A model generated the notes under the pieces. That model was not told the DNA's origin and did no database searches. It worked only from the letters and a program-made list of their open reading frames with translations. From the UHGV virus genome UHGV-0268673: a DNA stretch of 18,863 nt. One strand, written 5' to 3'. Shown piece by piece: positions 2,540 to 15,447 of this stretch. How positions within the stretch are numbered: the first letter of the stretch is position 1; every line of letters starts with the position of its first letter. This DNA comes from a virus. Position numbers and translations under genes: made by a program.

Positions 2540-5286
2540 TGCCAGTCGTACCAACAGTATCCGGACGCCAGGCGCAAAGTCGTGGTGTGCAAACCGGTGG
2601 TTTTCAGATCTTCGATGTTCCTCAAGCAGGTCAGGTGCTGGCGAATGTCGCAGATCAGTATGCGGTGGCATATGGTGAAGCCAGGCAGAAAGCGAATGTT
2701 GCTATGGCCCAGGAGGCGTTACTGCAATTTAACCAATTTGCAGATGACCAGATTAACAACCCTGAAAGTGGGCTGATTTCTAAACAGGGTAAAAACGCTC
2801 TTGGTCAGAGTGACGCTGTTATGAAAAATATGCAGGAAAGGGCTCAGGCATTATTAGGCTCAATTCCTGAAAGTGAGGAAAGGAATAAATTATCCTTTCA
2901 ACTCCAGCAGTCTATGCAGTCTTATTACAATCAGGCACGTCGATATGAAGTTGGGCAGTTTCAGCAATTCCAAGATCAAACGTATTTGTCAGGAAATGCA
3001 TTGGCTGTCACTCAGTCTGCGGGGCTATATAGCGATAACCAAGCATTTGTCGATTTAGCCAAGCAGCGATTTGAATCTATTGATCAATACGCTGATGCGC
3101 ATGGGCTTCCTGATGAGTGGCGTGTTCAGCAGAAAACTCAGCTCAAGGAACAAATGGGGCAGCAAGCATGGATAGGAAATATCGCTCAAAAATACAACGA
3201 GTTTCTTCAGGTTAATGGAGAGCCAGGGGATCTTGATGGTGTGAGTCGTGCAATATCACATGGTAATTCATTGGATGCTCGTGGTTTACGTAATAATAAC
3301 CCTGGTAATATTGAAGCGAGCAAATCTAACCCGTGGGAAGGTCAGATCGGTAGCGATGGACGTTTTGCAACGTTTGCTACCCCTGAGCATGGAATCCGCG
3401 CGTTGGGTAAAAATATGTTGTCTTACCAGCGTCAAGGCTATGACACCGTTAGCGAGATTGTTAATCGCTATGCTCCGGCTAGTGATGGTAATAATACTGA
3501 TGCTTATATTAGGGCATTGTGTGGTGAGCTTGGTGTTGGGGAGAATGATCAGCTTGATATCTCTAACCCAAAGACACTAGCTGCTTTATGTGCTGGGATT
3601 ATTAAACACGAAAATGGCAGTATGCCTTATAGCACCGAACAGCTTGAAACTGGTATCTCGGCAGCCCTTGGTCTAACTAACCTTGATTCACCTAAGCGTT
3701 ATACGGGCAATGCGGCATTTGATGCTATGAGCCCTCAAATGCAAATACAGGCATTGAGGCAGGCTAATGAGCTGAGAAATCAGTACCGCCAGCAGTATGC
3801 GGACCAGCTTAGCACCGTAGTTAAAGATGCATATTCAGCCCTTGATGAAGGATTGAAACCTGAGAAGTTACCTTCTGAGGACGATTTTATCCGGGCCAAT
3901 GGTCCGCGCATTGGCGCTATGAAGTGGAAGGATATGCAGGCGCAGATACAATATGGAGGTGTCATTGGTGCCGCTAAAGACCTCACTCCAGAAGGACGAC
4001 AAGACATTCTTGAACGTTTACGTCCACAGGATCCAAACGCTCCTGGATTTGCAGCTAACCAGCAACGCTGGGAGAAAATGCAGGCCAAATTTAAAGAGAT
4101 GGATAGGGAGTGGGAGATTCAGCAGGGAAGAAACAGGTTCGTGTCTTCAATGCAAAATAACTTCCCGCTGGACCCGAACGACAAAAACAATCAGGCAGCG
4201 GTAGACCGTTATTTCGCGCAGGATATCGCGCCTTCGTTTTCCATATCTGATCCGCAGAGCATCAATACACTGGTCACCGTCACAACTAAAAGCGGCATGA
4301 TACCAACTCAGATTAAAACAATGCTTAACAGTGGAGCGACATCAAGAGATCCTGCGCTGGTTGTCCCGATGGCAAAATTCTACGGTCAGTTATTCGATAA
4401 TAATCCGGCGGCAGCGGCAACACTTGATAAAAGTACGATGGCATTTTACGGCAAGGTTTACGATTATTCCCGCGCTGGCGTGCCGGAGGATAAGGCTGTT
4501 GATATGGCTTACAGCCAGGTGTTCCAACAGGATGACCGAATGAAACAGATGCTTTCCACTGCCATGCGAGACAAAAAATATGTCGCGGCGAGGGCAACTG
4601 CTGCACAAAATAACGCCAGCAGTCTGACTTCCTTTGGTTCGTGGTCTCCGGATATTACCGATCCAGGAAAATCAAATGCGGCCTATCAGCGAGATTACCA
4701 GACAATTTACGATGCTAACTTTGTACAGACAGGTGGCGATGCAGAACAGGCTGAGAAAATGACCAATGCCATGATCAGAACCACTTGGGGAGTTTCTACG
4801 GTTAATGGCAAAGCAGAGGTTATGAAGTATGCACCTGAGGCATTGTACGGAGTAAATAATGGTGCTGGTAACTGGATTCAGGGGCAGTGGGAGCAGGAAA
4901 AACGCGAGCTTAAATCAAAATCCTTTGGCGGTCCTCGCAGTGATACGGACTTAATACTTGTTTCTGATAGCCTTACGGCAAGGGATAGGAGTTATGCTGT
5001 TATGGTTTTACAGCCTGACGCAAACGGAGCGATAGAACCGAGAAATTATATTGGAGAAAATGGTCTCCCTGTTCGTTTCAAGCCGGATCAGCTGACATCT
5101 CCAATGTACAGGCAAACCATTCAGTTCCAGCAACAGCGTGTTGATGAGGCTAGAGTGAGGAGAGAAGGCAATCCGCTGCCGCAGTTCAGCAATAAAGATG
5201 GATATACTCCTCCAGATCTGACCAAACCATTCGGTTATGGTTCAGCCAATTACCTTCCGAGCAATATATACGCAGGGGGCAAATAA
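2539..5286 (+). CDS. Large internal virion/ejection protein (915 aa from the ATG at 2539)
   Basis: The ORF track gives 2464..5286, but the ATG at 2539 has a strong GGAGG Shine-Dalgarno 6 nt upstream and overlaps the upstream stop (TAATG), so 2539 is the likelier start. Contains a conserved-looking block (…RGLRNNNPGNIEASKSNPWEGQIGSDGRFATFATPEHGIRALG…). Size and position match T7 gp15-like core proteins. Confidence 0.75.
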   Translation: MPVVPTVSGRQAQSRGVQTGGFQIFDVPQAGQVLANVADQYAVAYGEARQKANVAMAQEALLQFNQFADDQINNPESGLISKQGKNALGQSDAVMKNMQERAQALLGSIPESEERNKLSFQLQQSMQSYYNQARRYEVGQFQQFQDQTYLSGNALAVTQSAGLYSDNQAFVDLAKQRFESIDQYADAHGLPDEWRVQQKTQLKEQMGQQAWIGNIAQKYNEFLQVNGEPGDLDGVSRAISHGNSLDARGLRNNNPGNIEASKSNPWEGQIGSDGRFATFATPEHGIRALGKNMLSYQRQGYDTVSEIVNRYAPASDGNNTDAYIRALCGELGVGENDQLDISNPKTLAALCAGIIKHENGSMPYSTEQLETGISAALGLTNLDSPKRYTGNAAFDAMSPQMQIQALRQANELRNQYRQQYADQLSTVVKDAYSALDEGLKPEKLPSEDDFIRANGPRIGAMKWKDMQAQIQYGGVIGAAKDLTPEGRQDILERLRPQDPNAPGFAANQQRWEKMQAKFKEMDREWEIQQGRNRFVSSMQNNFPLDPNDKNNQAAVDRYFAQDIAPSFSISDPQSINTLVTVTTKSGMIPTQIKTMLNSGATSRDPALVVPMAKFYGQLFDNNPAAAATLDKSTMAFYGKVYDYSRAGVPEDKAVDMAYSQVFQQDDRMKQMLSTAMRDKKYVAARATAAQNNASSLTSFGSWSPDITDPGKSNAAYQRDYQTIYDANFVQTGGDAEQAEKMTNAMIRTTWGVSTVNGKAEVMKYAPEALYGVNNGAGNWIQGQWEQEKRELKSKSFGGPRSDTDLILVSDSLTARDRSYAVMVLQPDANGAIEPRNYIGENGLPVRFKPDQLTSPMYRQTIQFQQQRVDEARVRREGNPLPQFSNKDGYTPPDLTKPFGYGSANYLPSNIYAGGK

Positions 5287-8200
5287 TGCCGATATATGAA
5301 CAGGATCCTAAAGAGTTGCTTGGCGAGGATATTCAGCAAATAGCAGCACCTGATGACAGTAATTTCTATATGGAAACACCTTCTTTGCTTTCTGCTGTGA
5401 ACCCATTTACCAGTGATCAACGCGTTCAAAGGTCTAGACAAGCAGCATTTCGTATAGATAACACGCTGGGTAGCTTTATTGCCAGTGCTCCTTTCAGTCA
5501 GTTTGACAGGGTTGAAGGATATAACCCATTTGATAACGATGCAGCAGATATTAAAGGCTATGAAGATTTTGCAGATTCGTTTATCAACTCCGGTTCGCAT
5601 GAAGAAACAATGGCAATTAAACATCGAATCGATAAGCAAAGAACAGATAGAGAATATCTATCTGAAATGGGTGGTGCTGGTACTATTTCAAGCTTAGCAA
5701 TGGGAATGATAGACCCGGTTAATGTGGCTGCAATGTTCATCCCTGTAGGGGCGGTAGCGCGTGGAGGAAGTATTGCTGAGACGGCAGGGCGTTTTGCCCT
5801 GGCGAATGCTGCTGGTGGGGGAGTATCAGAAGCCGCATTACAGGCCACTCAGGAAGCTCGCTCACCGATGGAGAGCGTATCGAACGTTGTTGTTGATGCT
5901 CTCGTTGGTGGGATCCTTGGTGCTGGTGCACAGCTACTTGCTGGACCTAGCGCGCGCGAGGCAGTGGTTAACTCAGTAGGTAATCATTTGCGAGGTATGG
6001 ATTCTCCTCAAAGCATTGGTGCAGCTCAGGTTTTCAATACCACACTCGATCAGGAACAGCTCGCTGGACTTGGACTTGCTAACAAAACGTTGAGTGTCAC
6101 TCCTGCTGGCCGCTTGGCGCAATCACCATCTCTTGTCTCCCGTCAGATTAACCAGCAGCTTGCCGAAAATAACTATTTCTTCGCCAAAAATGATGAGGGG
6201 TTGGCTACGTTTACGGCAGTCGAGACTAAGATTAAGCAATACGACGCCATGCTTTATAAGCAGATGGAAGCCACTCGTGATGCTTACCAGCAGTACAGCA
6301 AATCTGTTAGCGCCCGCGGCGTGAAGAGGATGAACTTTATTGATTTCAATGAAGCTGTTGGCATGGCCATGCGCCGTGGTGATCAGAGTGATATTCCTGA
6401 GGTTTCACAAGCTGCCGCCAGAATCCGCCCCATTTTCGAGACCACAAAAGCCCGTATGCAGGAACTGGGGATCCTTCCTGAGGATATCGATGTCGTGACG
6501 GCGAAAAGTTATCTTCCCCGCATTTATAAGTTCGATAAGATACTTTCCGACCGCACTGAATTCAGAGGGCGAATTGCCAACTGGATACAAGGGATTAGTG
6601 CCAAAGGTGCTGACAAGGCAGGTCAGCGAATTGAAAGGATAAATTCATTGCTAAAAACTGCAGAGGAATCGGCACCGCGCGCTGATGCTCTCGCTAGTGA
6701 AATCGCTGAAGCGGAGAAATGGTCTGGTAAAAAAATTCTACTCATGGAAGAACTGGATAAACGAAATAAGCTTATATCTCAGGAGACTGACACACAGGCG
6801 CGTCTTACAAGAATAGAAAAAGAGTTGGCCGAGACTTCATCAGAAAAACTTCAGGCAAGAATGATGAAAGAAAGCTCTGACCTTAAAACACGCCTTGATG
6901 ATATAGCGCAGGCAAAGAGTGAGCTTCCTATCTATCAGCGCCATATGGAATTGCTGGATAATCCACGGAAATATCGTTCTGAGCTTCGCCGACTGCAAAA
7001 ACGGGCAAATTCAACCACAAGGCTGAATGCAAGCCGCGAACGAGCACTGAAGCAGATGGAGCCTCTATCCCGAGAGGAAGCAGAGGACGCTGCTGACGAG
7101 ATCGTGAATAAAATAATAGGCGCACCTTCCGGGCTTGTACCAGCCGATATTATCCCAGAGAGACTCGTTGGTCGGGCTGGTTTCACTAAAAGCAGAACGC
7201 TGCTTATTCCTGATGAGCGTATAGAAGATTTTCTTGAATCAGATGTTAACTACATCATGGAAAGTTATCTCCGGCAGGTGGCACCAGAAATTGAGCTGAC
7301 TGCGCAGTTTGGCCGTAAAGATATGGGGGAGCAAATCCGTCAGGTTAGTGAGGAATATACCCGGCTAATAAAAGAGGCTAAAACACCTAAACGACGTGCA
7401 GTTCTTGAGAAGCAACGGGAGGCTGATATTAGGGATATTACGGCTATGCGTGATCGACTGCTTGGTACTTACGGTGCACCTCAAGATCCACGCAGTTTCT
7501 TTGTTCGTGCCGGGCGAGTTGCTAGGAATATTAACTTCCTCCGTTTGCTTGGTGGAATGACTGTCTCCGCTGCAACTGATCTGATGCGACCGATGATGCA
7601 GCATGGCCTGAGAAAATCTCTCGGACCAATGGTAAGCATGCTTAAAAATATGGACTCAGTGAAAATTGCAACCAGGGATTTGCGAGAAATGGCCGTTGGG
7701 CTTGATTATGTCCTGTCTACGCGTACAAAGGCTATAGCGGATCTTACTGACCCCTATAGCCGGAGAAGCGCCGCTGAGCGAGGTCTGAACTGGATGACGC
7801 AGAAATTCGGTAACTGGACGCTGATGAATCAGTGGAACAGCGCACTTAAATCATGGTCCGGGATGATAGTGCAGTCGAGGATACTTGACGCGGCTCGCCA
7901 AGTTTCTGCTGGTGGCACGCTCTCCAAAAGTGAAATGCGGAAGATGGCACAGGTCGGCATCAATGAAGATGTTCTGCGCCGAATCGGGGAGCAATTCGGG
8001 AAGCACGGAGAGGATATGGACGGGCTGTTAACCGGGCATAGTCATCTGTGGGATGACCGTTTCGCTAGAGAGATTTTCCAGTCTGCAGTGCTGAAAGATG
8101 TAGACTCAGTGATTGTAACGCCTGGCGTAGGTGATACACCGCTGTTTTTTAGTAAAGAAGGCTGGAAGATGATCACGCAGTTCAAAACGTTTATCTTCGC

Positions 8201-8675
8201 ACAGCATAACAGGGTGCTGGTATCTGGTATCCAGCAGGGCGATGCTGCATTCTATCTTGGTGCGCTTGGCACGATTGCGCTTGGCTCAATGGTCTATATG
8301 ATGAAACAGAAGTTAAGCGGTCGCGATATCGACTACAGCTGGAATAACCTTGTGAAAGAGGGGATCGACCGGGGCGGAATGCTTGGCTGGCTCTCTGAGC
8401 CGCTGAATACCGTTGAGAACATAAGCGGCGGTAGGTTTGGTCTTGGCGCGATGTTTGGTGCGCCTCCGGTATCAAGGTTTCAGAGTCGTAATGCTATTGG
8501 TGCTTTACTTGGTCCTACCTTTGATCTTGGCGGTGATGCCGCGACGGTTGCGAATGGTGTACTTAACGGAGAATTTGACAGCCAGCAAACCCACGCGGTC
8601 CGTAAAATGCTACCTTTTCAGAACCTGTGGGCGATATCACCGTTACTAAATAAAGTTGAAGAGCAGATGAAATAG
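5286..8675 (+). CDS. Very large internal virion/ejection protein (1129 aa) with a central coiled-coil-like segment
   Basis: ATG at 5286 overlaps the upstream TAA. Long uninterrupted ORF with a heptad-like charged region around residues 450-600. Size and position resemble T7 gp16-type proteins. Confidence 0.75.
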   Translation: MPIYEQDPKELLGEDIQQIAAPDDSNFYMETPSLLSAVNPFTSDQRVQRSRQAAFRIDNTLGSFIASAPFSQFDRVEGYNPFDNDAADIKGYEDFADSFINSGSHEETMAIKHRIDKQRTDREYLSEMGGAGTISSLAMGMIDPVNVAAMFIPVGAVARGGSIAETAGRFALANAAGGGVSEAALQATQEARSPMESVSNVVVDALVGGILGAGAQLLAGPSAREAVVNSVGNHLRGMDSPQSIGAAQVFNTTLDQEQLAGLGLANKTLSVTPAGRLAQSPSLVSRQINQQLAENNYFFAKNDEGLATFTAVETKIKQYDAMLYKQMEATRDAYQQYSKSVSARGVKRMNFIDFNEAVGMAMRRGDQSDIPEVSQAAARIRPIFETTKARMQELGILPEDIDVVTAKSYLPRIYKFDKILSDRTEFRGRIANWIQGISAKGADKAGQRIERINSLLKTAEESAPRADALASEIAEAEKWSGKKILLMEELDKRNKLISQETDTQARLTRIEKELAETSSEKLQARMMKESSDLKTRLDDIAQAKSELPIYQRHMELLDNPRKYRSELRRLQKRANSTTRLNASRERALKQMEPLSREEAEDAADEIVNKIIGAPSGLVPADIIPERLVGRAGFTKSRTLLIPDERIEDFLESDVNYIMESYLRQVAPEIELTAQFGRKDMGEQIRQVSEEYTRLIKEAKTPKRRAVLEKQREADIRDITAMRDRLLGTYGAPQDPRSFFVRAGRVARNINFLRLLGGMTVSAATDLMRPMMQHGLRKSLGPMVSMLKNMDSVKIATRDLREMAVGLDYVLSTRTKAIADLTDPYSRRSAAERGLNWMTQKFGNWTLMNQWNSALKSWSGMIVQSRILDAARQVSAGGTLSKSEMRKMAQVGINEDVLRRIGEQFGKHGEDMDGLLTGHSHLWDDRFAREIFQSAVLKDVDSVIVTPGVGDTPLFFSKEGWKMITQFKTFIFAQHNRVLVSGIQQGDAAFYLGALGTIALGSMVYMMKQKLSGRDIDYSWNNLVKEGIDRGGMLGWLSEPLNTVENISGGRFGLGAMFGAPPVSRFQSRNAIGALLGPTFDLGGDAATVANGVLNGEFDSQQTHAVRKMLPFQNLWAISPLLNKVEEQMK

Positions 8676-9693: not shown

Positions 9694-10014
9694 TTATACT
9701 ATTGAGTTAAATGATATCTTGTCCTTAATATCATTAAGTTTGCCATGTATCTTTTTTGCATAAGAATCAGCTTCCTCAATAAACTTCGACTTCTCATTAT
9801 CAGGCATATTTTTGAAGGTATGTGCACATGTATATTGAGAGTAGTAATTGTGAAACTTGTTATACAAATTATTGAGTTCTTGTAAGTCTTTTTTATACTC
9901 AGGAAGGTATATGTTTATTAGCATTTCCATCGTTTGCAACGGATTGACTTTTGATGTGTCAAATTTACTACCAGAGTGGTAACTGGCATTGTTAACAAAA
10001 TTGAGAATAGCCAT
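9694..10014 (-). CDS. Hypothetical protein (106 aa), very AT-rich; last gene of the minus-strand cargo cluster
   Basis: Uninterrupted ORF in a roughly 30% GC stretch (judged by eye). Weak ribosome-binding site, so confidence is only moderate. Same orientation and spacing as the upstream membrane-protein genes. Confidence 0.45.
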   Translation of the reverse strand: MAILNFVNNASYHSGSKFDTSKVNPLQTMEMLINIYLPEYKKDLQELNNLYNKFHNYYSQYTCAHTFKNMPDNEKSKFIEEADSYAKKIHGKLNDIKDKISFNSIV

Positions 10015-10079
10015 TTCGCTTGAAGCTATGGCTTTTTCAGTAAGTATGCAATTTGTGAATAATTGCTCACGTTTATCTC

Positions 10080-10196
10080 TTAATATTTTTCGCGCTCTAA
10101 TTTTATGCTGTTTTTGTATCCTTGCCTTGCACTTATGTAAGTAGAAACTATAGCAATAACTGCACCTATCAATGCTCCTAAGATAGTATTATCCAT
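10080..10196 (-). CDS. Small single-pass membrane peptide (38 aa: MDNTILGALIGAVIAIVSTYISARQGYKNSIKLEREKY), absent from the ORF track
   Basis: Hand translation of the minus strand. ATG at 10196 is preceded by AGGTGG with a 5-nt spacer; TAA stop at 10082-10080. Hydrophobic core GALIGAVIAIV. Sits between the 287-aa membrane-protein gene and the 106-aa gene. Confidence 0.45.
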   Translation of the reverse strand: MDNTILGALIGAVIAIVSTYISARQGYKNSIKLEREKY

Positions 10197-10221
10197 ATAA
10201 GCCACCTAAACTGCGTAAAAA

Positions 10222-11085
10222 TTATTTCCTGCCACTTCTGTAGTATATGTTGCGACCATTTTTGGTCACATTAACAACATGACCCTTTGTTTCTACTTTG
10301 TTATTTGTTGCCTTATATACTTCAAAGTCAAACCATGATATATGACTTATTTCGTCTATAGATACCATAATTTCTAGACCTTGAACTTTCTTTTTGCTTA
10401 TCCCTTTTATCGCAGCACTGCGCTTAATTTGGATTTCACCTGGGTAAGCGTTTGTAAATGTAACAGATAAATTTTCTTTGTTTCTGTACCCTGACATTAA
10501 AGGAACAAAAGATATGTGTTGGTGTGGCCCTTGATTTTCCGTTGGCTCACCAGAACCATTTATTATTCCAACGTATACTTTATTTGATGATAAAGTAATT
10601 AACATTGGTTTCTTAGGATCTGATTCGATTGCATCAAGCAATAGCAAATCTAAAGAACCCTGGGAGTACGTTTTTCGCAATACTCTAGCTTTCATTGCCT
10701 CTGATATTTTGTCATAAATATCACGTTTATAAAAAAAACCTAAAAGAAGATCTTTTAGCCAAACAAAAGATACATAACACAAAGAGAAGCAAATTGATGT
10801 GACTGACAGAAGAAGTAGCCACATGTAAATTCTATCTGTTTCTGGTTTTGACGTTACATTAAAAGTTTCCACCATATCGTGAACTAGGTGAAAATCAGGA
10901 TATTTATATTTTATAAATGCGGCAATTATTACTGAAGCAACAAGGCAATATGTACCTAATGCAGCTACTTTCATATAAAGAAGCTGGCCTTCATGTCGGT
11001 ATAAACGGAAATAATGATACTGGTTAGCGGTTATCATAATATAACCACTAACCAGAATGGGGATAATTAGAAGAGCTAACAACAC
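10222..11085 (-). CDS. Inner-membrane protein with three predicted N-terminal TM helices and a roughly 175-aa soluble C-terminal domain (287 aa); candidate exclusion/defence/conversion effector
   Basis: GTG start at 11085 overlaps the TAG of the upstream 69-aa gene (TAGTG) and has an AAGGAAA Shine-Dalgarno. Hydrophobic stretches at about residues 2-20, 38-60 and 86-110. AT-rich. I recognise no family. Confidence 0.7.
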   Translation of the reverse strand: MLLALLIIPILVSGYIMITANQYHYFRLYRHEGQLLYMKVAALGTYCLVASVIIAAFIKYKYPDFHLVHDMVETFNVTSKPETDRIYMWLLLLSVTSICFSLCYVSFVWLKDLLLGFFYKRDIYDKISEAMKARVLRKTYSQGSLDLLLLDAIESDPKKPMLITLSSNKVYVGIINGSGEPTENQGPHQHISFVPLMSGYRNKENLSVTFTNAYPGEIQIKRSAAIKGISKKKVQGLEIMVSIDEISHISWFDFEVYKATNNKVETKGHVVNVTKNGRNIYYRSGRK

Positions 11086-11294: not shown

Positions 11295-11320
11295 ATCTCC
11301 TCCTCATGTAAACACATGGT

Positions 11321-11335
11321 TTACCTTTAAGGTAA
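11321..11335 (-). promoter_or_regulatory. Operator-like palindrome O1 (TTACCT-TTA-AGGTAA) overlapping the -10/+1 region of the promoter for the 69-aa/membrane-protein operon
   Basis: Perfect 6-bp inverted repeat with 3-bp spacer. On the minus strand the order is -35 TTGCAG, 17-nt spacer, -10 TACTAT, operator. One of three copies of the same palindrome in the island. Confidence 0.5.
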
Positions 11336-11406
11336 TAGTACGCTATTCACCCCCAGTCTGCAATCTGTACAGAATTATTTAAAGGCACGTCCCTGTGCCG
11401 CCGCCG

Positions 11407-12102
11407 TCAGAAGAACCCTGCTTTGTCGTTGATGTACTCCGCGTGCGTCTGGATATCACGCAGGCATTTGCTCACACCGACGATGTAGCAGAACATGGTG
11501 GTCAACTCCGCCGCCGCGCCCGATACGTCATGCCCGTCTTCCTGTAACTGGTTCAGCAGATTCATCAGCAGTGAGTTCTCCGTCAGGCCGAGAACACCAG
11601 ACGGAGAATGAATCAGGCTGCGGTAGCCTGGCTTCAGTGGGGCGCTGTAGGTTTTGTTCTCTATCTTCATCGCCTGCATCACTGCTGATGCTGTGGCGTT
11701 TGCAACCTGGTCGGCAACCATCTTTATGCGTTCTTCCTGCGGGAGCGAGTTTTTAATGTAACTTCCGGTGCGGCGGATCTGAGGAAGAACCTCACCTGTA
11801 ACCCATTTACGAAAGCGGTAGGGGATAGTGCCTGGTGTCACTGCGTCGCGGCAGCGGAGGATCAGTGTGTAGAGGCCTGACTCGGAGATGATGATCGATT
11901 CTTGCTCACCGCCAGGGGTGTCGGTTGAAGCGACGCCCTTCTCATCATCATCAAGTTTTCGAACAGCATCTCGATGGTTTGCTATGCCTATAGCCCGACA
12001 AACATCTGAAGCGATAAACCATGGCTCACCATTAATGACGATTACCCGTATATCGGCTTGGGATTCGAAAGAAAAAATGGACGTGCTTTTTGTAGCTGTC
12101 AT
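11407..12102 (-). CDS. Phage anti-repressor-like protein with an N-terminal Bro-N domain (231 aa)
   Basis: N-terminal region IRVIVINGEPWFIASDVCRAIGI…DEKGV…GGEQESIIISESGLYTLILRCRDA…FRKWVTGEVLPQIRRTGSY matches the Bro-N/AntA-type pattern. AAGGTAA Shine-Dalgarno upstream of the ATG at 12102. C-terminal ~65 aa is paralogous to the 85-aa protein at 12418..12675. Confidence 0.8.
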   Translation of the reverse strand: MTATKSTSIFSFESQADIRVIVINGEPWFIASDVCRAIGIANHRDAVRKLDDDEKGVASTDTPGGEQESIIISESGLYTLILRCRDAVTPGTIPYRFRKWVTGEVLPQIRRTGSYIKNSLPQEERIKMVADQVANATASAVMQAMKIENKTYSAPLKPGYRSLIHSPSGVLGLTENSLLMNLLNQLQEDGHDVSGAAAELTTMFCYIVGVSKCLRDIQTHAEYINDKAGFF

Positions 12103-12259
12103 AGTGGTTACCTTTTAGTCTGGTTAATCACCACTACCGACGCCAATCGGTTGGTGGTGAACTGTGCAGGGTTGGCGTAACCGGCTAAAAGGACCCGGCG
12201 CACCTTTCGGTGCCCCCACACAGCCCACCATAATACGAATGTGGCCGTGCTATACGCAT

Positions 12260-12279
12260 AAAAAAACCGCTTGCGCGGT
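12260..12279 (-). terminator. Rho-independent terminator on the minus strand, between the 85-aa gene and the anti-repressor-like gene
   Basis: Minus-strand read: ACCGC-GCAA-GCGGT hairpin (GNRA-like loop) followed by six T (plus-strand A-run 12260-12265). Confidence 0.5.
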
Positions 12280-12371
12280 GAATGCGCCTTTTAGTAATCC
12301 GGGACGCCAATCCCGGCACTGGATTTTGCCAGTGCCCGATTACTATGGCACAAGAGGAGTGCGATGTAAAT

Positions 12372-12386
12372 TTACCTCAAAGGTAA
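12372..12386 (-). promoter_or_regulatory. Operator-like palindrome O2 (TTACCT-CAA-AGGTAA, extended ATTTACCT…AGGTAAAT) with associated promoter-like elements
   Basis: Minus strand shows -35 TTGCAA (plus 12409-12414), 16-17-nt spacer, -10 TTATAT/TATATT, then the operator at the putative +1. Same architecture as P1/O1. Confidence 0.5.
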
Positions 12387-12417
12387 ATATAAGCACTCCA
12401 CTTGGTAATTGCAAACC

Positions 12418-12675
12418 TTATCTGGTTTGTTTTCGTAATTGTTCGGCACAATAGTCGAGATGTGTTTGCAGATCCTGCATAGACATCTGTGAGCTGGTGA
12501 CGTAGTTAATCAGTGCAGTCAGTTCGGCAAGTGGGCCATCGACATTAAATCCATCCTTATCGAGATCCCGGAGTAATTTCATCAAGTGCGATCCCTCCAC
12601 CAGTGACCTGACGCCTCCCGGCGTGTGAATCCTTTCGGTAAATCCGTCTTCCAGTGGATAGTGATACTGCTGCAT
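12418..12675 (-). CDS. Small protein (85 aa from the ATG at 12675) homologous to the C-terminal domain of the adjacent Bro-N anti-repressor-like protein; candidate SOS-inducible anti-repressor-type regulator
   Basis: The ORF track starts at TTG 12693; the ATG at 12675 has a GGAGA Shine-Dalgarno 7 nt upstream. Roughly 40-45% identity by eye over about 64 aa to residues ~165-228 of the 231-aa protein (e.g. LMKLLRDLDKDGFNVDGPLAELTAL vs LMNLLNQLQEDGHDVSGAAAELTTM). LexA box and O3 lie upstream. Confidence 0.65.
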   Translation of the reverse strand: MQQYHYPLEDGFTERIHTPGGVRSLVEGSHLMKLLRDLDKDGFNVDGPLAELTALINYVTSSQMSMQDLQTHLDYCAEQLRKQTR

Positions 12676-12694
12676 CTTATCTTCTCCATGCAAT

Positions 12695-12714
12695 AACTGT
12701 ATATTTATACAGTA
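12695..12714. promoter_or_regulatory. LexA (SOS) box: AACTGTATATTTATACAGTA
   Basis: CTGT-N8-ACAG with an AT-rich spacer, about 18/20 match to the E. coli LexA consensus TACTGTATATATATACAGTA. Lies between the promoter region and the ribosome-binding site of the 85-aa gene and overlaps a TATAAAT -10-like element on the minus strand. Confidence 0.6.
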
Positions 12715-12751
12715 TCAAATAATTTGTTTGCTATCCAGCACGTTTTGCAAA

Positions 12752-12766
12752 TTACCTGAAAGGTAA
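12752..12766. promoter_or_regulatory. Operator-like palindrome O3 (TTACCT-GAA-AGGTAA, extended ATTACCT…AGGTAAT), flanked by the self-complementary TTGCAA hexamer
   Basis: Third copy of the palindrome, in the divergent intergenic region between the 85-aa gene (minus) and the tailspike gene (plus). Could serve a promoter in either direction. An extra AGGTAAT half-site lies at 12811-12817. Confidence 0.5.
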
Positions 12767-12870: not shown

Positions 12871-15447
12871 ATGACGGTCTCAACCGAAGTTGACCACAAC
12901 GAATACACTGGTAACGGCGTTACGACATCATTTCCGTATACCTTCCGTATTTTCAAAAAATCCGACCTGGTTGTTCAGGTGTCTGACCTTAACGGTAACG
13001 TAACAGAACTAGTACTGGATACCGGTTATACGGTAACTGGGGCGGGCACTTATAGTGGCGGTTCTGTTGTTCTTCCGTCGCCGCTTGCTGCTGGATGGCG
13101 AATTACGATAGATCGTGTGCTTGATGTAGTGCAGGAGACAGACCTTCGCAATCAGGGAAAATTTTTCCCCGAAGTGCATGAAGATGCCTTTGACTACCTG
13201 ACGATGCTGATCCAGCAATGTTTTGGGTGGTTCAGACGTGCATTGATGAAACCATCTTTGCTTGCAAAATATTACGATGCAAAGCAAAACAGAATTTCTA
13301 ACCTTGCAGATCCATCATTTGAGCAGGACGCTGTAAATAATCGCTCAATGCGTAATTATGTTGATGCTGCAATCGCCGGGGTTGTTGGTGGTTTTGGTTG
13401 GTTTATTCAGTATGGTTCTGGAGCAGTATACCGAACGTTCCAGGATAAGATGAGAGATATCGTCAGTGTTAGCGATTTTGGTGCAAAGGGAGATGGAATA
13501 ACTGATTCTACGGAGGCGTTCTCTAATGCAGGCCACAGAGCGTTTGTTCCTAATGGCGATTTTGCAGTAAATACTCTCGAAGTTGATGTATCTTCTGTTC
13601 AAGGTATTGGGAGGATTGTTGCTGATAATGGATCTCTTATTTCAGTTTCTCGTCTACTTGAAACTGACAAACTTGTGCAGAGAAAAATGATGGAACCTTT
13701 TTTTGGTTTTCAGGGAGAAACAAACACAGAAATTTATCCTAATGCCAGAAATGCGTTACAGGGGATCGCATATTGCCGTGTTAATGGCATTGAAAAACTA
13801 TTTGTCACACAACGGCCTGTTGGGCCAACCTGGTCAGATAAAGAAAGAGTTCGTATTGTTGAGTTTAATCTTTATGATGATGGAAGGGTAGTAAACCATG
13901 TTGCGTATTCTCCAGAATTAAACCTTGGGCACGGATTTGATCTTTCTGCCATGGTGGAGAATGGTCAAGTATATTTATATACATCAAGTGTAACCAATTC
14001 AGGTGAAGATGGGGAGTCTGCAGGCAAAGGGTTTAGTAAAATAACTTGGCGAGGGGCAGGAACAACTCAGTCTGACGTAAAAAGTTATAATGTATGGGGG
14101 ATTACTGGTAGCGGTCACCCATTTCAAGATTACAATCGTGCAGGAATTGCCATTTCTTCTGACGGTCGTCTTTTAATAATGGTTAATACACCAAAGAGTG
14201 ATGCCGCTAAACGAACTGTATTTATATACGATAAAATATCAATTGATAAACTTGAAGATAAAACATTAGCAAACCCCATGTTTGTTTGGGAAATGAGCGA
14301 CTCACCTTCTGAAGGCGCTTACTCTGTACAAGGTATTGCGTCTGATGGAAGATATATACATATACTTAAGGGAGGGACTAACGCTTTTGGAAAGCATCAT
14401 ATCTTTACATATGATTTAACAGGTAATTTACTAAGAAAATTAGATATCGATGATGCAAGGTCGCAATATGGGCGCGATGGGTTGCTTAACCATCCAACTC
14501 TTGGGAATCCAGCCAGATTTGAGCCGGAAGGTCTAACTATTCGTGGTGAAGAAATAATTATAAGCTGCATAGAAACATGGAGGGCAGGAGCTAATATTGT
14601 AAACTGGCGTGGAAGAAGATGGGCTGCATCATCCATTGAGACTTCTGGAATAATTGGTGTCCCTCCATCAAATGGCTCTTATTGGGTAGAAACAACCAAG
14701 GATGCAAATTCTGGAGATTGGAGTCCTGAAACAGATTATGGATGGGGAAGTAGCTATTCTCTTGAGAAAAAGACAATTTACTCTATACGACCAGCGACTG
14801 GTAACAACGATGAGCAGAACCTTAATTCTGGCATAACCAATGCTTCAAGTAATGCAGGTGCAGATGCCGGAGAAAGCGGGCGAAATATATCATTTAGATG
14901 GCGCAATGCTTTTAATATTGTTGCATTTAGCGAACGTCTTGGTGAGTACTTCAAAGCTATTATGTATGATAATAGCTCAAGATTAAGAATATACGATCAG
15001 CAAAACGGTAGTGATAACACTGTTTATGGCTCAATCCAGGCACTATTTACGTCATCATTTAAGGGATTGATTTTAAGGGGTAGGGGGGTATCAGCATCAA
15101 ATAGTTCCTATATTAGGTTACATTCATCTGATGATCCAAACTACCCAAATTCGATCATTGAAGGAACAAGAACAGATGGAAGTTTTTCCAGGGAAACAGA
15201 TTCAAACGGAACCACTACATTTGCATCGGACTCAGAGCACGAACCGTTGCGTATCAGAAGGGCTTCAGATGGTTTGTTGTTTGCATACGAGAAAGTAAGA
15301 GGTACAACTCTCTTTGGAATTTATAGAGGCTCCGGTTCACCTGAGGGTGTTGTGACCGCACCTCAGGGGTCAATGTACATTGATTATAATGGTGATTGGT
15401 ATCAAAAGAAAACAGGAACAGGAAATACAGGATGGGTGTTAAAATAG
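12871..15447 (+). CDS. Tailspike/tail fibre protein (858 aa) with T7 gp17-like N-terminal virion-attachment domain and a large C-terminal receptor-binding/enzymatic region
   Basis: GGAG Shine-Dalgarno 7 nt upstream. The N-terminal ~120 aa (…YTGNGVTTSFPYTFRIFKKSDLVVQV…ITIDRVLDVVQETDLRNQGKFFPEVHEDAFDYLTMLIQQ) follows the conserved pattern of the T7 tail-fibre N-terminal domain. Long Gly/Ser/Thr/Asn-rich remainder is typical of tailspikes. Confidence 0.85.
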   Translation: MTVSTEVDHNEYTGNGVTTSFPYTFRIFKKSDLVVQVSDLNGNVTELVLDTGYTVTGAGTYSGGSVVLPSPLAAGWRITIDRVLDVVQETDLRNQGKFFPEVHEDAFDYLTMLIQQCFGWFRRALMKPSLLAKYYDAKQNRISNLADPSFEQDAVNNRSMRNYVDAAIAGVVGGFGWFIQYGSGAVYRTFQDKMRDIVSVSDFGAKGDGITDSTEAFSNAGHRAFVPNGDFAVNTLEVDVSSVQGIGRIVADNGSLISVSRLLETDKLVQRKMMEPFFGFQGETNTEIYPNARNALQGIAYCRVNGIEKLFVTQRPVGPTWSDKERVRIVEFNLYDDGRVVNHVAYSPELNLGHGFDLSAMVENGQVYLYTSSVTNSGEDGESAGKGFSKITWRGAGTTQSDVKSYNVWGITGSGHPFQDYNRAGIAISSDGRLLIMVNTPKSDAAKRTVFIYDKISIDKLEDKTLANPMFVWEMSDSPSEGAYSVQGIASDGRYIHILKGGTNAFGKHHIFTYDLTGNLLRKLDIDDARSQYGRDGLLNHPTLGNPARFEPEGLTIRGEEIIISCIETWRAGANIVNWRGRRWAASSIETSGIIGVPPSNGSYWVETTKDANSGDWSPETDYGWGSSYSLEKKTIYSIRPATGNNDEQNLNSGITNASSNAGADAGESGRNISFRWRNAFNIVAFSERLGEYFKAIMYDNSSRLRIYDQQNGSDNTVYGSIQALFTSSFKGLILRGRGVSASNSSYIRLHSSDDPNYPNSIIEGTRTDGSFSRETDSNGTTTFASDSEHEPLRIRRASDGLLFAYEKVRGTTLFGIYRGSGSPEGVVTAPQGSMYIDYNGDWYQKKTGTGNTGWVLK

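Follow-up and report, generated by a model that had tools for sequence, protein, structure and literature searches.

A Putative Anti-Immunity Locus with Two Anti-Repressor Modules and Paralogous Effector Domains in an epsilon15-Like Phage of Escherichia coli

Introduction

The anti-repressor Ant of Salmonella phage SPC32H has an orthologue of 85 amino acids (aa) in the stretch of DNA studied here, 18,863 nucleotides (nt) of the virus genome UHGV-0268673 (hereafter, the window), which belongs to a temperate, epsilon15-like (Uetakevirus) podophage of Escherichia coli. The SPC32H Ant/Rep anti-repression switch was reportedly described by Kim and Ryu in 2013 (J Virol) and by Kim et al. in 2016 (PNAS), and entries 5D50 and 5D4Z of the Protein Data Bank (PDB) are presumably the structures from that work. 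In this switch, tetrameric Ant binds two Rep dimers, disassembling the DNA-binding Rep tetramer, as summarised in PMC9638917, and Ant is under SOS/LexA control, as summarised in PMC7380047. Beside the 85-aa protein, the window encodes a 231-aa protein whose amino-acid sequence is identical to those of ORF4 of phage vB_EcoP_ZX5 (ZX5) and gp46 of phage TL-2011b, all 10–11 nucleotide differences being synonymous. When ZX5 ORF4 was overexpressed, prophage counts fell from 1e9 to 1e6 (~1000-fold) and repressor mRNA decreased by 75%; the authors noted only a Bro-N domain in this protein and left the mechanism open (PMC9782041). Both open reading frames (ORFs) lie on the minus strand of the window and are flanked by virion genes and by the tailspike gene, which is divergent from ant.

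Modular proteins in which AntA/Bro-N-type N-domains are carried on a constant C-domain were reportedly described by Iyer, Koonin and Aravind in 2002. In the AriS-like proteins of Listeria, AntA, Bro-N and pRha domains are found on an ANT/KilAC domain (PF03374) (PMC9043618). Anti-repressor genes under RNA control are also described: in the immI region of phages P1 and P7, the c4 RNA blocks anti-repressor synthesis at a ribosome-binding site and defines heteroimmunity (PMC12197685), and in the isrK-orf45-anrP locus of the Salmonella prophage Gifsy-1, the anti-repressor mRNA is made but stays untranslated in the absence of trans-acting IsrK (Hershko-Shalev et al. 2016, PMC4825925).

Here, we show that the C-terminal domain of the 231-aa protein is an old paralogue of Ant and that the gene encoding it is preceded by IsrK-like and C4 antisense RNAs. 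The stretch from 11321 to 12766 is best explained as an anti-immunity locus with two anti-repressor modules, the effector domains of which are these old paralogues.

Results

A Shared Effector Domain

Residues 2–75 of the 85-aa protein align without gaps to residues 150–223 of the 231-aa protein, with 31 identities in 74 columns (42%; BLASTP, E = 8e-16). A first-pass annotation, made from the letters of the window alone, had claimed such a gapless paralogy for residues 20–85 and 165–228, and the alignment bears this out over a slightly longer extent. Both proteins also matched phrog_450, a PHROG family of 'unknown function' (9e-48 and 4e-36); Pfam has no family for the shared domain and NCBIfam none for either protein. 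At the DNA level, the paralogues are 48% identical across the aligned codons and their synonymous sites are saturated, and the duplication is thus old, in agreement with the earlier claim that it was not recent. Within a given phage, the two domains are 38–43% identical, which is not above the identity observed between phages; the split is therefore older than the phage lineages of E. coli, Enterobacter and Klebsiella. On the same grounds, we rejected the possibility that gene conversion had taken place between the paralogues of one phage.

In sequence, the 85-aa protein matched chain E of PDB 5D50 ('Anti-repressor protein', from the Rep–Ant complex of a Salmonella temperate phage) with E = 4e-47 over residues 2–84 of its 85 residues, and residues 150–226 of the 231-aa protein matched 5d50_E with E = 1e-13. 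An AlphaFold2 model of the 231-aa protein, built from a 39-sequence alignment, had a predicted local distance difference test score (pLDDT) of 70–87 across the C-domain. In a Foldseek search, this C-domain matched 5d50_G with a probability of 1.0, a target-normalised template modelling (TM) score of 0.79 and a root-mean-square deviation of 2.1 Å over 71 columns. The fold of the C-domain is thus that of Ant.

The remainder of the 231-aa protein consists of an N-terminal Bro-N domain (PF02498; residues 17–107, 76.7 bits in Pfam for a cut-off of 25.6, E 2.3e-21) and of a predicted helical linker that leads to the Ant-like C-terminal domain. The modelled N-domain matched the N-domain of baculovirus Orf22 (4ye7_A) and the APSES DNA-binding domain of Mbp1 (Foldseek), and no Pfam match to ANT/KilAC (PF03374) was found for the 231-aa protein, even at E ≤ 1. 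Residues H165, S177, E199, Y206 and H220 are invariant throughout the family and common to the small Ant. Both genes are under purifying selection, with ratios of nonsynonymous to synonymous substitution rates (dN/dS) of 0.06–0.17 for ant, and of 0.15–0.19 for the N-terminal part and 0.25–0.30 for the C-domain of the large gene. Judging from its sequence, the 231-aa protein would bind Rep through its Ant-like domain.

SOS Control of the Small Gene

The small gene and its upstream region comprise the following features, given by window coordinates and by strand where one applies.

12752–12766: operator-like palindrome C (TTACCTGAAAGGTAA), in the interval that separates ant from the divergent tailspike gene, upstream of the ant promoter

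12709–12737, minus strand: putative ant promoter, assigned by eye, with −35 TGGATA (12737–12732), a 17-nt spacer and −10 TACTGT (12714–12709) overlapping the LexA box

12697–12712: LexA (SOS) box CTGTATATTTATACAG, the sole CTGT-N8-ACAG in the window

12418–12675, minus strand: ant, 85 aa, orthologue of SPC32H ant, with an ATG start and a GGAG Shine-Dalgarno sequence 9 nt upstream

The 85-aa protein is ~86–88% identical to the Ant of SPC32H, where the syntenic gene is annotated as ant and lies beside the tailspike gene as it does in the window. SPC32H-type Ant is a stand-alone protein of ~86 aa, a description that fits the 85-aa ORF but not the 231-aa protein, in which the domain is a C-terminal module. 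The LexA box is near-perfect and is located 22 nt upstream of the ant ATG. An exact box is found at the same place in phiV10, TL-2011b, Tyrion, SPC32H and the related locus L008, and ATGT replaces CTGT in the Klebsiella loci L005 and L013. An alignment of the ant promoters from six lineages contains the operator-like palindrome, the invariant CTGGATAG with the −35 hexamer TGGATA, the 17-nt spacer, and TACTGT overlapping the LexA box; TAC-TGTAT is, like CTGGATAG, invariant across this alignment.

On the strength of these sequence features, the 85-aa protein is an already known kind of anti-repressor, an orthologue of SPC32H Ant that is controlled by LexA. The first-pass annotation had suggested a LexA-controlled minimal anti-repressor or a competitor of the full-length protein: the former is supported by the match to 5D50 chain E and by the LexA box, and is already established for SPC32H Ant, whereas the latter found no support. 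The target had been supposed to be a CI-type repressor, but by homology with SPC32H Ant it would be Rep, a protein with two helix-turn-helix motifs (5D50 chain A) that is not of the self-cleaving CI type.

Many database gene calls (P0010, P0036 and P0062, for example) extend ant upstream through the LexA box to a length of 126–127 aa, and these are probably over-extended starts. One such extended sequence is labelled Staphylococcus aureus, which is probably a contamination.

Predicted Antisense RNA Control of the Large Gene

A scan of the window for CTGT-N8-ACAG returned only the copy upstream of ant, and no LexA box precedes the gene of the 231-aa protein. This gene is not simply under the control of LexA, but has a promoter of its own and is gated by antisense RNA of the IsrK/C4 type. 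Between the two genes, in a region missed in the first-pass annotation, an IsrK-like RNA and a C4 antisense RNA are encoded on the minus strand, both recognised by Rfam families well above their gathering scores: IsrK (RF01394, positions 12335–12260) with 77.9 bits for a gathering score of 50, and C4 (RF01695, positions 12235–12150), upstream of the anti-repressor gene and on the same strand, with 77.7 bits for a gathering score of 45. The Rfam c4-a1b1 target family gave 45.1 bits, just below its gathering score of 46.7. From ant towards the end of the locus, the features are as follows.

12372–12386: operator-like palindrome B (TTACCTCAAAGGTAA), contiguous with the −35 of PisrK, its centre at ~−44 relative to the IsrK 5' end

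12342–12370, minus strand: PisrK, with −35 TTTACA, a 17-nt spacer and an extended −10 (TG)CATAGT; 9/12 with TG in a promoter scan

12260–12335, minus strand: IsrK-like RNA (Rfam RF01394) and its intrinsic terminator, with the terminator stem at 12266–12279 followed by a U run

12304–12310, minus strand: C4 target copy b1, TTGGCGT, in IsrK

12287–12294, minus strand: C4 target copy a1, CTAAAAGG, in IsrK

12150–12235, minus strand: C4 antisense RNA (Rfam RF01695)

12185–12192, minus strand: C4 recognition segment a', CCUUUUAG

12172–12178, minus strand: C4 recognition segment b', ACGCCAA

12111–12146, minus strand: leader of the Bro-N gene, with C4 targets b2 TTGGCGT (12140–12146) and a2 CTAAAAGG (12111–12118)

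11407–12102, minus strand: gene of the 231-aa anti-repressor, with Bro-N at residues 17–107 (nt 11782–12054) and the Ant-like domain at residues ~148–231 (nt 11410–11661)

11321–11335: operator-like palindrome A (TTACCTTTAAGGTAA), downstream of the Bro-N gene, at the left edge of homology with the closest relatives

The hexamers of PisrK are conserved in six lineages and end ~7 nt before the 5' end of IsrK, which itself ends in an intrinsic terminator. No terminator-like site was found between the ant stop codon and PisrK. The pair of target sequences TTGGCGT and CTAAAAGG is present twice, in IsrK and in the leader of the 231-aa gene, and is complementary to the b' and a' segments of C4. The a2 copy contains the Shine-Dalgarno sequence of the 231-aa gene, 8 nt before its ATG, and in every one of the seven lineages, the a2 site ends 8–10 nt before the ATG.

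The cognate pairings (a':a1, a':a2, b':b1 and b':b2) showed no non-pairing position in 7/7 lineages, as compared to 1–9 such positions in non-cognate combinations. The recognition sequences differ by lineage and their targets change in step with them; the seven lineages have four to six different specificities. Duplex energies of whole RNA segments were confounded by the stem sequences and thus uninformative, and the explicit table of pairings was used instead. IsrK and C4 precede the large anti-repressor gene in eight related loci, those of phiV10, TL-2011b, Tyrion, a Klebsiella phage and the AntA and pRha loci among them.

An ORF that starts inside C4 ranges from 3 to 60 aa among the lineages and is not conserved in length or sequence. 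It was considered as a counterpart of icd or orf45 and rejected for this variation in length. In ZX5, a coding sequence annotated as 'ash family protein' (L007, positions 1779–1892; window ~12124–12231, minus strand) lies wholly over the C4 RNA, and because the equivalent ORF varies from 3 to 60 aa, it is probably an annotation artefact of the RNA gene.

Taken alone, the IsrK/C4 segment (12127–12329) matched ~100 Stx1/Stx2-converting and other lambdoid phages with 60–85% identity (H25 and ~140 further records). The range of this RNA cassette thus greatly exceeds that of the Ant-fold domain, and elsewhere the cassette accompanies other anti-repressor genes.

A Candidate Rep/Cro Operator

The palindrome TTACCT-N3-AGGTAA is present in three exact copies in the window, where 0.06 are expected, and TTACC-N5-GGTAA occurs 10 times in ZX5 (one copy at L007 13822–13836), where 0.04 are expected. 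The interval that separates rep from the divergent cro-like gene contains one exact copy and two degenerate ones in ZX5, and two exact copies and one degenerate copy in SPC32H (L012, positions 8391–8422). The distance from palindrome C to the centre of the LexA box is 54.5 bp in the window, SPC32H and Tyrion alike. In the window, Tyrion, Klebsiella, L008 and L009, palindrome B is centred at ~−44 relative to the IsrK 5' end, and in phiV10 at ~−41.

Because it is present in triplicate between rep and cro in two phages, we read this palindrome as an operator, which is probably the Rep/Cro operator of the epsilon15-like phages; if so, Rep would therefore also act on both anti-repressor promoters. 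The possibility that the palindromes are terminators or promoter elements was rejected, as they have neither G+C-rich stems nor U tracts.

Occurrence in Other Phages

An exhaustive profile search of 1.84 billion representative proteins returned only 58 clusters with the Ant-like domain. These are stand-alone proteins of ~82–95 aa and C-terminal fusions to Bro-N, AntA (PF08346), Phage_pRha (PF09669) and ORF6N (PF10543). The AntA form has a C-domain identical to that of the window and occupies the same locus in another epsilon15-like prophage, beside an 85-aa ant and the tailspike gene; the pRha forms are also found at this locus of epsilon15-like prophages, each adjoining a small ant. Proteins of 95–103 aa that appear to be stand-alone versions of the fusion type (P0032, P0033, P0056 and P0122) start at internal methionines of the linker and may be truncated gene calls, and were not used.

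In 50,697 phage records, the Ant domain was detected in 34, and all 34 fall within the set of 37 in which a Rep homologue is encoded. The Rep proteins of phiV10 and ZX5 matched 5d50_A with E = 4e-42; Rep is not encoded within the window. The Ant fold is thus a portable C-terminal effector, carried on Bro-N, AntA, pRha and ORF6N proteins and restricted to Rep-encoding phages. As Pfam lacks a family for it and PHROGs gives it as 'unknown function', the annotation of many Enterobacteriaceae prophage proteins labelled 'BRO-like', 'AntA/AntB' or 'Rha' could be improved.

Both genes are present in phages of E. coli, Enterobacter (Tyrion) and Klebsiella, and only the small ant in SPC32H, epsilon15 and SPN1S. 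The small protein had been presented as a free-standing copy of the C-terminal domain of the Bro-N protein, but the polarity is the reverse: the small Ant is a core gene of all epsilon15-like phages, and the Bro-N fusion, absent from SPC32H and epsilon15, is an added module.

A natural chimera of 84 aa (P0106; L013, positions 4001–4255), found in 4 contigs, joins in frame the 5' half of ant and the 3' half of the fusion gene. It lies beside the tailspike gene without Bro-N, IsrK or C4, and is followed downstream by a YafO-type toxin gene. P0106 looks like a deletion that arose by recombination between the paralogues, and it suggests that their halves are interchangeable.

Neighbouring Genes

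The segment 11000–13000 is 95–98% identical to Phi05_2388 B, TL-2011b, vB_EcoP_ZX5 and phiV10 (megablast). Neighbouring ORFs encode virion and injection proteins, the tailspike (12871–15447), holins, an endolysin and a spanin. In megablast, homology to Phi05_2388 B and TL-2011b begins at window positions 11321 and 11319, respectively, and palindrome A (11321) marks a mosaic boundary, the left edge of homology being at ~11319–11398. To the left of 11321 are different minus-strand ORFs of 69 aa (phrog_5739), 287 aa (phrog_3630), 106 aa and 146 aa, with no function assigned; PADLOC returned no match for these four.

TL-2011b carries a third anti-repressor module, of the P22 type (L002, positions 6730–7914), composed of an Arc-like repressor, a 315-aa Ant and a match to sar RNA at 6901–6968. 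Its isrK and its small ant are also set apart by ~0.8 kb of additional DNA (L002, positions 9785–10933), which contains two more operator-like palindromes.

Discussion

We propose that this locus combines an SOS-switched Ant with an RNA-gated 231-aa protein through two paralogous Rep-binding modules, the second being an anti-repressor that would also act on Rep, and we assign to this overall picture a probability of about 0.65. The present analysis provides the homology and common fold of the two domains, the RNA elements together with the covariation of their pairings, the LexA box and the fact that the domain co-occurs with Rep. Two points, the mechanism of Ant in SPC32H and the anti-lysogeny effect of ZX5 ORF4, are taken from the literature, and we infer the binding of the large protein to Rep, the assignment of the operator and the order of events. 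DNA damage would remove LexA and allow Ant to be made, and Ant, by homology with the solved Rep–Ant complex, would bind the phage Rep and take its DNA-binding tetramer apart, leading to induction of the prophage. Downstream of ant, the second module would have its own sigma-70 promoter, placed behind a Rep/Cro-type operator and driving IsrK, C4 and then the 231-aa protein. Two exposed segments of C4 are predicted to pair with the leader of the 231-aa gene and to hide its Shine-Dalgarno sequence, and the protein would therefore be kept untranslated, like the ant products of P1 and P7. IsrK, with its second copy of both target sites, may serve as a decoy for C4. Release would then be expected once C4 is outnumbered by its targets, the decoy IsrK and the leader RNA, either after Rep has left the operators or early in infection. 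The 231-aa protein most likely acts on the same Rep via its Ant-like domain, as a second, RNA-gated anti-repressor, and could reinforce induction after Rep has left the operators or provide an anti-immunity function during infection.

Several observations weigh against this picture. The C-domain is only 42% identical to Ant, and the full-length AlphaFold2 model is modest (mean pLDDT 64, predicted TM score 0.36). The ZX5 ORF4 assay was performed with an overexpressed protein tagged with glutathione S-transferase (GST), and its readout is not specific for a direct effect on Rep (PMC9782041). A 16-bp deletion at codons 181–186 has split the large gene of phiV10 (L001, positions 3012–3691) and of the O157 typing phages 9 and 10 into ORFs of 194 and 29 aa; these phages are viable with a frameshifted, truncated C-domain, and the large protein is therefore dispensable for a temperate phage. 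The Rep of the E. coli lineage is ~42% identical to that of SPC32H while the small Ant is 86% identical, so that the specificities of Ant and Rep do not simply co-vary: either Ant recognises a conserved surface of Rep, or the ant module was exchanged horizontally more recently than rep. Finally, the operator at −44 may either repress or activate PisrK.

The Ant-like domain might also be mainly an oligomerisation module, through which the large protein would form mixed oligomers with Ant, and modulate or compete with it, or tether Ant/Rep to DNA via Bro-N. The two genes are adjacent and their products have one fold in common, Ant is described as tetrameric and as binding two Rep dimers (PMC9638917), and the N-terminal partners Bro-N, AntA, pRha and ORF6N are all putative DNA-binding domains. 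However, ZX5 ORF4 lowered lysogeny when overexpressed alone, as an anti-repressor and not an antagonist of Ant would (PMC9782041); moreover, the paralogues are only ~40% identical and have not evolved in concert within single phages, which makes a conserved hetero-interface less likely, and the natural chimera suggests that their halves are functionally equivalent rather than antagonistic. This explanation thus seems unlikely to us. Quite unlikely as well is a different repressor as target, either a Rep variant of another epsilon15-like phage or an unrelated prophage repressor, on which the 231-aa protein would act in trans, resulting in cross-talk or in a break of resident prophage immunity upon superinfection. 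The divergence of the C-domain from Ant (42%) would agree with such a role, as would the combinatorial diversification of the C4 recognition loops among lineages, as in P1/P7 heteroimmunity, and the additional P22-type Arc/Ant module of TL-2011b, which shows that multiple anti-repressors with separate targets occur; trans-acting anti-repressors are moreover known in Salmonella prophages (PMC3121763; PMC7380047). Yet the domain family is confined to phages that encode a Rep homologue, and ZX5 ORF4 affects the lysogeny and repressor mRNA of ZX5 itself (PMC9782041).

The large protein could also work through Bro-N, on DNA or on host factors, with an Ant-like tail that is non-functional or decaying. 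The tolerance of phiV10-type phages to a frameshift in this tail and the poorly defined function of stand-alone Bro-N proteins would be compatible with a relic, but we hold it to be very improbable in view of the dN/dS of 0.25–0.30 of the C-domain across E. coli, Enterobacter and Klebsiella phages, the retention of an identical C-domain when AntA replaces the N-domain, and the invariant residues that the whole family has in common with the small Ant.

Within the proposed scheme of two anti-repressors that act on Rep, a more specific and tentative version can be imagined, in which the locus operates as a two-key switch. Ant released by the SOS response would strip Rep from its sites, the one at −44 of PisrK included, and thereby set off a surge of IsrK decoy and leader RNA. 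C4 would be out-titrated by this surge, and the Bro-N::Ant-like protein, once made, would lock the phage in lytic growth. During infection, heteroimmunity groups would be defined by the RNA-gated module with its lineage-specific C4 loops, as in P1/P7, and mixed tetramers of the two Ant-fold proteins may form. If true, such a locus would represent a new circuit design, with one repressor as the common target of an SOS-controlled anti-repressor and an antisense-controlled one.

A concrete, testable mechanism is thereby offered for ZX5 ORF4, whose anti-lysogeny effect was measured but unexplained. Furthermore, a single phage lineage uses anti-repressor domains of one type under controls that are unrelated to each other, by LexA in one case and by a C4/IsrK antisense RNA in the other, and the co-varying, specificity-defining RNA control bears on prophage induction and superinfection immunity in phages of E. 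coli O157, Salmonella and Klebsiella.

Comparison with Known Systems

The small module of the window resembles the Ant/Rep system of SPC32H in its ~86–88% identical Ant, its position beside the tailspike gene, its LexA box and an upstream palindrome at identical spacing, and Rep homologues are encoded by the closest relatives of the window. SPC32H has only the small ant, whereas the window adds the downstream IsrK–C4–Bro-N::Ant-like module, and the Rep of SPC32H is ~42% identical to that of the E. coli lineage. For the large protein, the closest counterpart is ZX5 ORF4 (Li et al. 2022, PMC9782041), which is identical to it and the overexpression of which shifts the phage from lysogeny; that paper reports neither the Ant-like C-domain nor the C4/IsrK RNAs, and annotates the neighbouring small ant as hypothetical.

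As in the immI region of P1 and P7 (c4–icd–ant1/2), the anti-repressor gene is preceded by a co-transcribed C4-family RNA with two recognition segments; target pairs lie both upstream and downstream, a ribosome-binding site is occluded, and the recognition sequences have diversified among lineages. In the window, unlike P1 and P7, a2 lies over the anti-repressor gene's own Shine-Dalgarno sequence and no icd-like upstream ORF is conserved; an operator-like palindrome precedes the promoter, and the protein has an SPC32H-Ant-like C-domain and not ANT/KilAC. The order of an IsrK-family RNA with a leaky terminator, a processed RNA complementary to IsrK, and an untranslated anti-repressor gene is that of Gifsy-1 (PMC4825925), where, in contrast to the window with its non-conserved upstream ORF, control is exerted via translation of orf45 coupled to anrP. 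A tblastn search with the C-domain did not return any Gifsy-type phage.

The exchange of AntA, Bro-N and pRha N-domains (here also ORF6N) on one conserved C-terminal effector is shared with the AriS family (PMC9043618), but the constant domain is the SPC32H-Ant fold in our case and ANT/KilAC in AriS. With the immI locus of P22 (mnt–arc–ant and sar RNA), the window has in common an anti-repressor locus between virion genes and the tailspike gene and an antisense RNA control of ant; it lacks Mnt, Arc and sar, and the proteins and the RNA are unrelated to those of P22. In the searchable literature, a scope outside which the 'Ant homologues' of Kim and Ryu (2013) fall, we found no description of the Ant fold as a portable, Rep-restricted effector that is deployed twice, under LexA and under C4/IsrK. 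Each component of the locus is of a known kind, the small gene being a member of the SPC32H Ant family and the large gene the already studied ZX5 ORF4, and any novelty would reside in the link between them.

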